Part shown: positions 41,988 to 62,046 of the stretch, piece after piece
How positions within the stretch are numbered: the first letter of the stretch is position 1
Layout: each line of letters starts with the position of its first letter
Source: Escherichia phage JLBYU50
Length of the DNA stretch: 64,000 nucleotides
Sequence record: OK272470.1
Reading direction: 5' to 3' (one strand)
The notes under the pieces: generated by a model
What the model was told of the DNA's origin: nothing
Seen by the model: the letters and a program-made list of their open reading frames with translations, nothing else
Databases searched by the model: none
Program-made: the position numbers and the translations under genes

Positions 41988-42027
41988 TCTATGTCTTATA
42001 CTATAAACTGTTTTTAAAGAAAGTCAA

Positions 42028-42327
42028 CTAGTTCAGTTCTGTAATTTTAAGTTTATCTTCTTTGTTAATGATAGGGAAAGCTACAGCATCACCTACGTCA
42101 TCAATAAAGCAAATAGCAAGGCCACCTTCCACTTTGCTAATCTGACCATTAAAGGCGTGATACGGGGCAGGAACTTGATCTCCATCTTCAAGGAGAATAG
42201 CCTCGTAAACCTTGCCGATAGTACAATCACGAGTGTTTCTAAATTTTTCAAGCACTTCAACATTTACTTTACGCATATAAAATCCTCTCTTATTTGTTAG
42301 ATTGAAAGATACCACGGAGTACCGCAA
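42028..42327 (-). CDS. hypothetical protein
   Basis: 99-aa ORF. Confidence 0.45.
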   Translation of the reverse strand: MRYSVVSFNLTNKRGFYMRKVNVEVLEKFRNTRDCTIGKVYEAILLEDGDQVPAPYHAFNGQISKVEGGLAICFIDDVGDAVAFPIINKEDKLKITELN

Positions 42328-59008: not shown

Positions 59009-60001
59009 ATGGGAACACCAAAATCATGGGAACAATATAAAGAAGAATTAACACCTCTTGCTAAAAATCGCAATATTCAAATCCTGGGTTATGTTGGTGA
59101 ATGGAAAGGGAATAAAACAAAACTTGATTTGTTGTGTCATTGTGGGTATAGATGGCAAAGTACAGCTATTACGGACTTTAAACGTGGTGGTGGTTGCCCC
59201 AGTTGTAATTTAGATAGCTTACGCAAACGTATAATCATCCCTGACGATCAACACATACAAGATTTCATGAATACTGGCGCTTTCCAACCAGGAACCATCT
59301 TCATCAATACAGGGGAACGTACTGGAAATAGTGACAGTATTTGGTGTATAAAATGTCCTATTTGCTCATACGACGAATATGTACAAGCTGGAGTATGTGA
59401 TGGTAAGTTTTATTCTACAAAGAGTAGTCTTAAAAACGGGAGTCTCGCTTGTCGTTGTTCTACACGTTATGTGTTTAGCGATCAGCAGTTAACATACCGC
59501 ATGAGAAAGGAGTTGCAGAAAAAAGATTTGATTTTTATTGAATGGGTAGGCAAACCTTCTGTAAGATTAGGTAAGTTTAAATATCTTTGTCTTGTACATG
59601 GGGAGCAGATAGGGAGTGCTAGTAACTTATTAAGCCACGGTCGAGGTTGTCCTATGTGTGCTGGTCATAGTCAGCAGCAGTTATATATTAATATTGTTAA
59701 GGATGATAATATTATAGTTGCTCTTAAGTTTGGTATAGCTAAAGATAGTGATAGGCGATTAAACATTCAAAATAGCCGTAATCTGTTTTTTATGGAACGT
59801 ATTTGTTTATATGATTTTAGCACAGTGAAACAGTGTAAGGCTGCTGAAAGAGCTATAAAGAAAAAATTAAAAACTGGTATTTTAACAGCAAGAGAGTTGA
59901 AAGACGGTCATACAGAAACAGTAAGTGTTTCTGATTTGGAAAATCTTCAAAAAATTATTACACAATATGGTGGCAAATTAGTATATAGTAAGGAGGTGTA
60001 A
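59009..60001 (+). CDS. zinc-ribbon repeat protein with C-terminal T5orf172 (GIY-YIG-like) domain
   Basis: Three Cys modules (CHCGYRWQ...GCPSCN; CPICSYDEY...CRCSTRY; CLVHGEQ...GCPMCAG); C-terminal VALKFGIAKDSDRRLNIQNSRNLFF resembles T5orf172. Confidence 0.5.
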   Translation: MGTPKSWEQYKEELTPLAKNRNIQILGYVGEWKGNKTKLDLLCHCGYRWQSTAITDFKRGGGCPSCNLDSLRKRIIIPDDQHIQDFMNTGAFQPGTIFINTGERTGNSDSIWCIKCPICSYDEYVQAGVCDGKFYSTKSSLKNGSLACRCSTRYVFSDQQLTYRMRKELQKKDLIFIEWVGKPSVRLGKFKYLCLVHGEQIGSASNLLSHGRGCPMCAGHSQQQLYINIVKDDNIIVALKFGIAKDSDRRLNIQNSRNLFFMERICLYDFSTVKQCKAAERAIKKKLKTGILTARELKDGHTETVSVSDLENLQKIITQYGGKLVYSKEV

Positions 60002-60553
60002 ATGCGGATTACTGATAAGTATGTGTTCTTCTTTTCAGCAAAAGATGAATTTAGCAACTGGTATCTATCATCTTTTATTGAACCTTTAGCTCCCAAGTAT
60101 AATAATTCTATTACAAGTTCTGTTGAATTTACTTGTGTGGAACAATATATGATGTGGAGAAAAGCATGTTTATTTTATGATTACAACATTGCATCTTCTA
60201 TTTTAACCGGAGATCTAAGATATACAGGAGAAAAAGAACAAGCATATTATAAGCGACTAGGCAGATTAGTTAAAGATTATGATGAAGATACCTGGACTTC
60301 TTTACGGGAGAAGATTGTCAAACGTGGTTTGTATCTTAAATACACACAAAATGAAGATCTCAAAAATAAACTTATAGCCTACGCAGATAAGGAGTTCGTA
60401 GAGGCAAGCCCTTATGATTCTATTTATGGTATCAAAATGGGGATGTGGGATCGGGACGTGGAAAATAAGGATTGTTGGAAAGGACAAAATCTTTTAGGAA
60501 AATGGCATACAGACCTTGCTGTTTATCTAAAAGCACAATCTGATATTTCCTGA
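60002..60553 (+). CDS. NADAR (YbiA-like) domain protein
   Basis: Collinear with E. coli YbiA: FSNWY, VEQYMMWRKA, RGLYLKYTQNEDLKNKLIAY, FVEASPYDSIYG, GQNLLGKWH; ATG overlaps upstream stop. Confidence 0.75.
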   Translation: MRITDKYVFFFSAKDEFSNWYLSSFIEPLAPKYNNSITSSVEFTCVEQYMMWRKACLFYDYNIASSILTGDLRYTGEKEQAYYKRLGRLVKDYDEDTWTSLREKIVKRGLYLKYTQNEDLKNKLIAYADKEFVEASPYDSIYGIKMGMWDRDVENKDCWKGQNLLGKWHTDLAVYLKAQSDIS

Positions 60554-60772
60554 TATTTTGAAAATTTTTATTTTTATAAAAAGGGGTGTGGGTTTCATGT
60601 ACGGAAATTCACCCTCTGCACAGTATATCCAGAGTAAGTAGTATTCTATACCCTGTTAATAAAGTATTTAATTTGTTTGTTGGACTATGGTATCTGATCT
60701 TTAAAAGGCATACTATCTCTTAACTACTACTTATAACAGAACAGTAAAATCATTTTTATAAAAAGTACAAAA

Positions 60773-60969
60773 TTATTTAAAGTTTTTACAGATTTTTGGG
60801 TACAAATTTTGAAAATGAAAAGTTCAAGTTTGGTCAAAATTATTTAAAGTTTTTGTACGTATTTCTATTCAGATTTTGAAAATGAAAACTTCAATTTTTT
60901 AAAAATTCCCCAGTTTATTTAAAGTTTTTTTGCCTTTTTCCGTAGAAAAATCAAAAATGAAAAGTTCAA
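60773..60969. repeat. three tandem copies of a composite element (ttatttaaagttttt - 21 nt - TTGAAaatgaaaagTTCAA)
   Basis: Unit A at 60773, 60840, 60915; palindromic unit B at 60809, 60876, 60951; A-to-B spacing 36 nt in each copy. Confidence 0.7.
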
Positions 60970-60992
60970 TTTCGTGTTTTTATAGGTGTGTT

Positions 60993-61050
60993 AATGAGAA
61001 TCATTTTCGTTTGTAAATGAGAATCATTAGCAAATGAGAATTTTCTCATT
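60993..61050. repeat. three copies of palindromic site AATGA-gaa-TCATT
   Basis: aatgagaatcatt at 60993-61005 and 61016-61028; extended palindrome aatgagaattttctcatt at 61033-61050. Confidence 0.65.
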
Positions 61051-61286
61051 TAGAGAATAACGCGCAGGGGTGGTGTTTGTCTCGCGCTCCCGTGTCCCCT
61101 CGCCATACAATAAGAATAGCATAACCAACAACAAAAGCAAGCGATTATTTTTATCTTTACATTTCTTTACAAATTTATTTTGGACGAGCTACCGGCGATC
61201 AACCTTCCAACCAGTGCCCCCTGGTATGTTAGCCCCGCCTTTACGCCGTGGGGGTGGCGTTTCCTCTTCTGTATGTAAAACAGTAT

Positions 61287-61320
61287 AAGCCCGATCCCTG
61301 GGCTTGTCAATATTATTTTT
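61287..61320. terminator. stem-loop aagccc-gatccct-gggctt with T-run on + strand
   Basis: Hairpin followed by gtcaatattattttttgtttt on + strand; overlaps 3' end of - strand ORF 61313..61579. Confidence 0.35.
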
Positions 61321-61579
61321 TGTTTTCTTGCCAGGATAGGACACCTAACCAAAAATACATGTCGCCCCGCGCCCCTGGCGGGATCTTGCTTTCCCCGCCG
61401 CCACTGCAAGCCCATAGATAACCATTTACGAACGTATCAAAGTGATCTATCTCTTCCACCTTATGATCGCCCAGGTTGAGAACGGTTTCAACCTTTAAGC
61501 CCGTTGCGCTTGCTACCTGGTGCACCGTGCCGCCTTGCCAGCCCAATGAGTGCATGAGATGTAAAGGAGTATTTGTCAT
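61313..61579 (-). CDS. hypothetical protein encoded in GC-rich islet
   Basis: 88-aa ORF, RBS aaaggg; own sigma70-like promoter; GC content visibly higher than phage average. Confidence 0.45.
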   Translation of the reverse strand: MTNTPLHLMHSLGWQGGTVHQVASATGLKVETVLNLGDHKVEEIDHFDTFVNGYLWACSGGGESKIPPGARGDMYFWLGVLSWQENKK

Positions 61580-61626
61580 GGTATCGCCCTTTCTTTGATG
61601 TGCGCCCTGGTTGGCGCGGTAGAAAG

Positions 61627-61655
61627 ATAATAGCCGTTTCCTTTATAGATAGCAA
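61627..61655 (-). promoter_or_regulatory. sigma70-like promoter for ORF 61313..61579
   Basis: On - strand TTGCTA, 17-nt spacer, TATTAT. Confidence 0.45.
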
Positions 61656-61691
61656 GCAAAAAAGAAATGAAAAAAAGATTAAAAAAAATGG

Positions 61692-61720
61692 TTGACGTTC
61701 CTCACCTGGTAGCGTAGTAT
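61692..61720 (+). promoter_or_regulatory. sigma70-like early promoter
   Basis: TTGACG, 17-nt spacer, TAGTAT, upstream A-tract. Confidence 0.55.
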
Positions 61721-61773
61721 TCATCTTGTCGAGGGGGCAATAGTGCCGCTCATAACAGAAGAGAGAAATAATC

Positions 61774-62046
61774 ATGGCATCATATAGCGCATCAATGATC
61801 GTAACGGGTATCACTGGTAAACCTATGCGCGGTGGCGGATCTTTCGCTAACATCAACATTGACGGGCGTTTATCCCTGGACGCAGCGATCACAGTGGCAC
61901 GGGAAACATTTAAAAAAGAATGTAATTTCAATAAACAAGATTATCTCGGTTTCGCTATTGAAAAAACCGCGCGCTTTGTGGATTATAAAAGCCCGAAAAT
62001 GATCGACACTACACTAAAAGCGCAAGATGTAGCGTTTTTGCTTTAA
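61774..62046 (+). CDS. early protein, unknown
   Basis: 90-aa ORF with RBS gagaga; downstream of promoter. Confidence 0.45.
   Translation: MASYSASMIVTGITGKPMRGGGSFANINIDGRLSLDAAITVARETFKKECNFNKQDYLGFAIEKTARFVDYKSPKMIDTTLKAQDVAFLL

Follow-up and report, generated by a model that had tools for sequence, protein, structure and literature searches.

The 64,000-nucleotide stretch of Escherichia phage JLBYU50 DNA analysed here (OK272470.1; the window) comes from a Justusliebigvirus, a phi92-like member of the Stephanstirmvirinae with a genome of about 148 kb. We examined a region of 507 bp at positions 60554-61060, which begins after the stop codon of a NADAR/YbiA-type gene (60002-60553) and carries three composite repeats and a cluster of predicted Fur boxes. 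On its right follows a GC-rich stretch whose sole open reading frame (ORF) is the small ORF88 (61313-61579, minus strand), a conserved small protein gene. The ORFs that overlap the region are only 36-45 amino acids long, and the stretch under them showed no conservation outside the genus and held no conserved ORF, which agrees with the initial annotation of the region as non-coding. The AT content across the repeats (60750-61050) is 74-84%, compared with 63% genome-wide. When 3.5 kb around the locus were used as the query, 47 records reached a coverage of 80% or more, the best with 97.8% identity, and the 507-bp stretch is 94-99% identical across 55 Justusliebigvirus records; some GenBank records mark parts of it, only as 'repeat_region'. 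A literature search found no transcriptome, origin mapping or publication on this locus for these phages. Records MG065639, MG065645, MG065656 and MG065689, entered as 146-kb 'Campylobacter phage' genomes with C. jejuni as the host, are about 96% identical to the E. coli Justusliebigvirus sequence here and may be mislabelled or contaminant genomes.

A conserved module of about 770 bp

We gathered the locus from about 25 lineages by means of ORF88 and two DNA patterns. The elements stand in a common order: GATATTT repeats at the end of the upstream gene, a GGGGTG...CACCC hairpin, a variable stretch, the tandem composite units, between one and five AATGAkAATcATTcTCATTT boxes, a GC-rich element containing blocks that hardly vary, a minus-strand promoter and the ORF88 stop codon. 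The arrangement is colinear in Stephanstirmvirinae and Vequintavirinae-like phages. This comparison indicates a conserved non-coding module that spans about 770 bp (60540-61312). We take 60554-61060 to be its AT-rich, putatively protein-binding half, and we assign the GC-rich 'islet' of the initial annotation and the conserved leftward promoter to the same putative module. The repeat part alone is 66-71% identical in the Klebsiella phages phi1_175008 and KP2025 and the Citrobacter phage Tr1. The overall DNA similarity between Justusliebigvirus and those phages is only about 12% (PMC11726925), and the ORF88 protein of the window phage is only 42-49% identical to those of the Klebsiella phages.

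At the left border of the module, two GATATTT repeats (60540-60558; 1.9 copies of CTGATATTTC in Tandem Repeats Finder) overlap the NADAR stop codon, and two to four copies of (T)GATATTT were found there in all lineages, even in those with a different upstream gene. The hairpin GGGGTGTGGGTTTC...GAAATTCACCCTC (60583-60616), which lies between an A-run and a T-run, is probably a bidirectional terminator. On the plus strand it folds with -19.8 kcal/mol (z -1.99); on the minus strand it is weaker, but is then followed by UUUUUAUAAAAAU. The equivalent GGGGTG...CACCC hairpin is present in Tr1, phi1_175008, 05F01 and phAPEC8. The motif AAAGGGGTGTG, seen at this hairpin (60579-60592), occurs twice in a second non-coding region of the relative alia (OZ035770, here L012; 42693-42709 and 42770-42786), to which we return below.

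Composite repeats and Fur boxes

The three composite units lie on the plus strand and start at 60773, 60840 and 60915. Each consists of TTATTTAAAGTTTTT (box A), 21 nt of spacer and TTGAAAATGAAAAGTTCAA (box B). In unit 1 (60773-60827) box A occupies 60773-60787 and box B 60809-60827, in unit 2 (60840-60894) they occupy 60840-60854 and 60876-60894, and in unit 3 (60915-60969) 60915-60929 and 60951-60969. Three composite repeats with constant internal spacing had been reported in the initial annotation, and they are real, box B always standing exactly 21 nt past box A. Box A is exact in all three units; box B has 0, 1 and 2 mismatches in units 1, 2 and 3. The spacing from unit to unit is 67 and 75 bp, Tandem Repeats Finder gives a period of 67, and identity among the 79-nt units is 71-72%. 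An A/T tract, TTTTTTAAAAATT, followed by CCCCAG, fills the interval between units 2 and 3 (60895-60913). Three matches of box B were found against 0.11 expected, a number reached in none of 100 shuffles, and box A has no further exact copy within the window. A motif search, which the initial annotation had proposed as a check, placed the composite units only at this locus, both in the window and in a relative's 148-kb genome, where the repeat-bearing region is single-copy.

The alignment showed that the array is colinear in five Stephanstirmvirinae lineages; unit 1 was aligned with four other genera or lineages. Conserved in the five are TTATTTAAA, the A-tract pattern sAAAAssAAAAyyTAAA, the unit spacing, and the TTTTAAAAATT..CCCAG tract before unit 3. 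The two unit spacings of phi1_175008 equal those of the window (67/75); Tr1 has 67/76 and phAPEC8 66/72. The spacers between the boxes diverge among lineages while box A, the A-tract pattern of box B and the spacing stay. The dyad TTGAA-N9-TTCAA, proposed at first as a recognition site, did not hold up: it is restricted to Justusliebigvirus, box B elsewhere being sAAAAssAAAAyyTAAA, and because the Klebsiella, Citrobacter and Phapecoctavirus homologues do not conserve it, the dyad is probably incidental. The Vequintavirinae-like phages have another box A, GGTTCTCGATCG (or AACTTGAGAGGTTTTTC in A7_1 and W70), in the same position and layout. They retain a related box B (TTTCAAAATCG...), and a AAAAAATTTTT tract ends each unit. 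Most of these lineages have three units; A7_1/W70 and CB7 have four or more boxes. This pattern suggests that the repeats are iteron-like sites for a lineage-specific, presumably phage-encoded, DNA-binding protein. Confinement to a single locus, lineage-specific sequence and a fixed layout would be expected of boxes bound by a co-evolving sequence-specific protein, and not of a class of promoters.

Right of the repeats, the initial annotation had described three copies of AATGA-gaa-TCATT. Only two are present as such (AATGAGAATCATT, at 60993-61005 and 61016-61028), and the third proved to be a different palindrome, AAATGAGAA-tt-TTCTCATTT (61032-61051), an inverted repeat with a fold z of -3.65. 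Since the third element has this form, AATGAGAA occurs three times in direct and once in inverted orientation. AATGA-N3-TCATT had been taken for the operator of a dimeric regulator, and its sequence bears this out: we identify the palindromes as predicted boxes for the host Fur protein. Our Fur matrix was built on 21 known sites that precede iron-induced genes (PMC3055841) and themselves score 17.7-25.5 bits. Fur box 1 (GTTAATGAGAATCATTTTCGTTTGT, 60990-61014) scores 26.2 bits and Fur box 2 (GTAAATGAGAATCATTAGCAAATGA, 61013-61037) 21.3 bits, compared with 8.6 for the next match in the window and a shuffle maximum of 18.7. Against the Fur consensus GATAATGATAATCATTATC (PMC4506495), box 1 matches at 16 of 19 positions and box 2 at 15 of 19; box 2 also matches the 7-1-7 motif TGATAATnATTATCA at 12 of 14 positions, and about 20 of the 25 positions of box 1 agree with the A. 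baumannii Fur site TTAAATGAGAATCATTTTCATTTAT. The palindrome at 61032-61051 appears to be a degenerate third box of the Fur type, whose half-sites stand 1 bp closer than those of its relatives through loss of 1 bp of spacer. The relatives' third box is TGAGAATTTTTCTCA, with the Fur-type 6-3-6 spacing, and scores 18.0 bits in alia. The two boxes and the degenerate third lie within 62 bp; P is 0.0015 for at least two matches in a shuffled 81-nt segment. As a plain 14-mer with up to 2 mismatches the motif was not enriched, and its significance is visible only with the Fur matrix and from the clustering.

Relatives carry one to five boxes at the same place, with 13-14 of 14 matches to the 7-1-7 motif. 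In a relative's genome, all nine matches above 15 bits fall within three non-coding loci, and the 7-1-7 sites with at least 13 of 14 matches are confined to the same loci, one of them being a perfect TGATAATCATTATCA. In a comparison of the window with L002, alia and L143, close relatives were found to differ by an insertion/deletion (indel) of about 55 bp at about 61005-61030, with two Fur boxes gained or lost. Alia and L143 have five boxes and the window three, the window phage having lost two through a deletion of this size, which suggests recombination between Fur boxes. Our literature search found no report of Fur boxes in these virulent phages. High-scoring Fur boxes in the non-coding DNA of strictly lytic phages suggest that such phages may read or manipulate the iron status of the host.

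Promoters and the GC-rich element

A leftward sigma-70 promoter, TTGACA-17-TATACT (61282-61310, minus strand; 11 of 12 matches), adjoins the ORF88 stop codon and points left into gene-free DNA, with a predicted start at about 61275. It is kept in all 16 aligned lineages, the -35 hexamer being TTGACA, TTGACG or TTGCAA and the -10 hexamer matching at 4-6 of 6 positions (5-6 of 6 in 15 lineages). The spacer of the promoter is GC-rich and partly palindromic, and its sequence varies among the 16. By its position, the transcript should cross the GC-rich element, then the Fur boxes and finally the repeats, and reach the hairpin and U5 run at about 60580, making about 700 nt without an ORF.

In the opposite direction, a candidate -10 hexamer, GAGAAT (61053-61058, plus strand), would belong to a weak rightward promoter overlapped by the Fur boxes. 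At this column nAgAAT is conserved in 10 lineages, and the layout of box, -10-like hexamer and G-rich start recurs at two other Fur boxes in the alia genome. A plus-strand terminator-like hairpin with a T-rich tail was found in the GC-rich element and ends at about 61272, beside the minus-strand start. Because the rightward hexamer follows the last Fur box and the hairpin with its pyrimidine tract ends at about 61272, a rightward transcript from 61064 to about 61270, some 205 nt long, would lie exactly antisense to the leftward transcript's 5' end. No pattern of sigma-28 or sigma-E promoters with correct spacing was seen by eye.

The GC-rich conserved non-coding element (61060-61275, from the alignment of 16 lineages) is readily alignable as nucleotides across both subfamilies. 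Within it lie CTTTACAtttCTTTACAaa (61155-61173), a pair of TTTACA half-sites set 10 bp apart, and the hairpins H3 (61208-61228) and H4, the latter with a pyrimidine tail (61228-61272). In H3 and H4 together, 90.6% of cells are paired, compared with 36-50% in slid controls, and one pair is AU in 9 sequences, GC in 7 and unpaired in none, a compensatory change. An argument for the plus strand from G:U pairs was dropped, since the 198:222 covariation shows that the outer H4 pairs are spurious. No family was recognised when 59.5-62.5 kb of the window and 17 kb of a relative were scanned against Rfam; a match to mir-1468 was spurious (24 bits against a gathering score of 95, E = 0.16). A coding function was rejected because the 72-codon ORF of the element is broken by indels in relatives, and an origin from host or plasmid DNA was rejected as no match was found in E. 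coli genomes or 72,556 plasmids. In T5-like and other unrelated viral contigs (for example L018, L020, L025 and L031), two to four tandem copies of the CTTTACAtttCTTTACAaa motif immediately precede sigma-70 -35 boxes.

Beyond the module, strong rightward early promoters with 5' hairpins start at about 61690. An early promoter TTGACG-17-TAGTAT, followed by the conserved 5' hairpin GGGGGCAATAGTGCCGCTC, occupies 61692-61770, and the 'PHIRE promoters' of the phAPEC8 record are these hairpins of 5' untranslated regions and not promoters. On the left, between an AAA+ ATPase gene and the NADAR gene, the gene at 59009-60001 is homing-endonuclease-like (CapR and T5orf172 domains), and its length and presence differ among close relatives.

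Possible functions of the module

We tentatively favour, while giving it somewhat less than an even chance, the reading that the module is a transcription-activated origin or a replication-control region gated by Fur. Host RNA polymerase would start at about 61275, transcribe the GC-rich element, Fur boxes and repeats in the leftward direction, and stop at the terminator near 60580. Its passage would open or prime the AT-rich repeats where a repeat-binding protein has assembled, and the result would be a transcription-activated origin, as in T7, T4 and ColE1. Fur-iron on the boxes would repress the rightward RNA of about 205 nt, antisense to the leftward 5' end in the geometry of ColE1 RNA I and RNA II, and bound Fur might also block the passage of the leftward transcript. 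Initiation would thereby depend on the iron status of the host.

We favour this reading because a unique, lineage-specific repeat array in AT-rich DNA is faced by a conserved promoter aimed at it, because the predicted sense and antisense RNAs would have a ColE1-like geometry, because the T7-like replisome has no known origin, because an AAA+ gene lies nearby, and because iterons and Fur boxes recur at a second non-coding region. The AAA+ ATPase gene, 1.6 kb upstream, weakly resembles DnaC or clamp loaders. In the rV5 group, which has no mapped origin, the replisome is T7-like, with a family A polymerase and a gp4-type primase-helicase; in the rV5 paper such a region is drawn only as a 'non-coding' box, the origin not being placeable by skew (PMC3606486). 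The second non-coding region was seen in alia (L012 41340-42940; 91.3-92.9 kb of the genome), beyond the right end of the window. It is 1.6 kb long and very AT-rich. The 18-bp iteron ATAAGCTATCCAATAATA occurs there four times in tandem (41991-42062), along with four Fur boxes, among them the perfect TGATAATCATTATCA; one of these boxes again precedes GC-rich non-coding sequence.

Several points weigh against the putative replication role. The iteron region of alia, about 11 kb away, is more classical and may be the real origin. The GC skew has no inflection at 60.5-61 kb, nor has that of the relative's genome at 80 kb; the skew, proposed initially as a check for an origin, tracks only the direction of transcription, with its cumulative minimum at about 56 kb where transcription diverges, and is a weak test for phages. 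Within 60300-61800 there is no TTATCCACA (with up to 1 mismatch), TTWTNCACA or WATCAANNNNTTR, that is, no site for DnaA or IHF. The unit spacing of 67-75 bp is far above the 17-22 bp of classical iterons, and we know of no precedent for a Fur box in a replication origin. The putative rightward promoter is weak and was not detected by a scan for the sigma-70 consensus. The overall folding of the GC-rich element was no better than that of shuffles on either strand (z +1.1 and -0.28), and RNAalifold gave similar energies for both strands, favouring neither. The initial proposal of a regulator-binding array or origin stands as the best class of explanation; its origin half gained no signal from GC skew.

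The main rival is a purely regulatory locus, an iron-responsive RNA switch made up of a rightward RNA of about 205 nt under Fur repression and a leftward antisense RNA expressed constitutively. Here the repeats would be an architectural or activator-binding region, or part of the leftward RNA of about 700 nt, and would control expression and not replication. The Fur boxes sit exactly where operators of a rightward promoter would belong, in a layout that recurs at two other boxes in the relative; a plus-strand hairpin and T tract close the element, its hairpins show compensatory changes, and conservation extends to the leftward promoter. With its 72-codon ORF broken in relatives, the element is non-coding, and its conserved single-stranded tracts CUUUACAUUUCUUUACAAA and CCUCUUCUGU are potential seed regions. 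Such a switch, however, has no Rfam family and no known target, neither strand folds better than shuffles, and its rightward promoter is weak. A small-RNA gene also needs no three phased, lineage-specific DNA repeats with conserved spacing. We regard the switch as possible but doubtful, though only somewhat less probable than the favoured reading. A further rival is a row of three tandem promoters, one per unit, of the sigma-70 or a phage-specific type; a cluster of phage-specific promoters was one of the initial proposals. Most units of several lineages have a TAnnnA/T hexamer about 28-35 nt past box A, and box A on the minus strand fits the T4 late promoter motif TATAAATA at 7 of 8 positions. 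The T4-late-like reading was rejected as the motif is not enriched elsewhere. The consensus scan of 60554-61060 found no sigma-70 match on the plus strand and a single 9/12 match on the minus strand, two of the three units have 19 nt between TTTAAA of box A and the hexamer, box A stands in no promoter context elsewhere in the genome, and the repeats of sister lineages lack promoter features. Three tandem promoters are very unlikely in our estimation.

Another reading is a packaging recognition (pac) site. Headful packaging usually begins at a unique pac site, SPP1 pacL/pacR and P1 pac being models for sites bound by terminase, and known pac sites lie in or beside terminase genes. The small terminase subunit could bind the repeats in bent DNA, with the first headful cut nearby. 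The phages studied here are circularly permuted and terminally redundant, which means headful packaging (PMC3606486; PMC3475682). The repeat array with its A/T tracts is unique, the GATC-containing repeats of Vequintavirinae-like phages are reminiscent of P1 pac, and a few database records begin within 0.1-2 kb of the locus. Record starts are scattered, though, one of them falling inside ORF88, and Fur boxes, a conserved promoter and RNA-type hairpins would be unexpected at such a site. On the 148-kb map of the relative, the large terminase gene occupies 21-2024 and the module lies at about 80 kb, a distance of about 70-80 kb. This makes a pac site unlikely, by our estimate only marginally less so than the tandem promoters are. 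The least probable explanation is a decoy, in which replicated phage DNA would titrate Fur and derepress host iron uptake, or in which RNA of the repeats would mimic an antitoxin like the pseudo-ToxI of phage PhiTE. Three to five strong Fur boxes per module and four elsewhere in the genome would be multiplied by the genome copy number, and the related, rV5-like PhiTE uses tandem-repeat RNA (pseudo-ToxI) against ToxIN (PMC3475682). Titration leaves the repeats, promoter and hairpins unexplained, and units of 67-75 bp with 71-72% identity contrast with the 36-nt repeats of ToxI. Homology to the PhiTE locus was ruled out, as pseudo-ToxI lies elsewhere.

In its boldest form, the Fur-gated reading would have a virulent phage use the host iron sensor directly, a Fur-Fe array controlling an antisense RNA or a roadblock and so deciding on the activation or priming of replication at the repeats, which we consider unlikely as a whole. 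If it were true, phage DNA synthesis would be tied to iron supply via iron-dependent ribonucleotide reductase and hence the production of deoxynucleotides (dNTPs), and the same logic would apply at the second region, about 11 kb away, where iterons and Fur boxes again occur together, and across Stephanstirmvirinae and Vequintavirinae. The phi92-, phAPEC8- and rV5-like phages are broad-host-range candidates for phage therapy, and their replication origins, pac sites and regulatory circuits are all unmapped. Iron sensing of this kind would bear on phage performance in iron-limited body sites. The result is a bounded conserved module with testable parts, namely the three units, the Fur boxes, the conserved promoter and the covarying hairpins.

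The module resembles several known systems in part. The first ten bases of CTTTACAtttCTTTACAaa agree at 9 of 10 positions with the tandem half-sites of OmpR (ompC C1, TTTACATTTTGAAACATCTA), but CTTTACAtttCTTTACAaa lies outside 60554-61060 and is not followed by a good -10 hexamer, so that this is a resemblance only. Like PhiTE pseudo-ToxI (PMC3475682), the array consists of non-coding tandem repeats in a phage of the same supergroup, and it is predicted to be transcribed in infection; it differs in locus, repeat length and sequence, its repeats being about 72% alike and conserved as DNA spacing. As in Fur operator arrays of the enterobacterial Fur regulon, the boxes at 60990 and 61013 score as high as real sites and are adjacent or overlapping, which is also the arrangement of known clusters of Fur sites (PMC2189734). 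Unlike those arrays, the predicted boxes lie in non-coding DNA of a virulent phage and not upstream of an iron-uptake gene, and the putative promoter beside them is weak and would drive a non-coding GC-rich element. With iteron origins (lambda ori, P1 oriR, SPP1 oriL and iteron plasmids) the module shares at least three direct repeats at a single AT-rich locus, a lineage-specific repeat sequence in a conserved layout, predicted transcription through the array and an AAA+ gene nearby; its composite units of 67-75 bp, the lack of DnaA and IHF sites and the position of the array outside any initiator gene set it apart. In ColE1 RNA II/RNA I, the T7 primary origin and T4 oriF/oriG, as here, a strong promoter faces an AT-rich region 200-500 bp downstream, and this phage group has a family A polymerase (PMC3606486). 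The T7 and T4 origins are primed by transcription. There is no sequence similarity to ColE1 and no plasmid match, the antisense promoter is putative, and the repeats have no ColE1 counterpart. As in ColE1, the antisense RNA predicted here would span precisely the transcript's 5' end and stop at its start, with conserved hairpins in the overlap, and the likeness to ColE1 would be one of predicted mechanism, not of membership.

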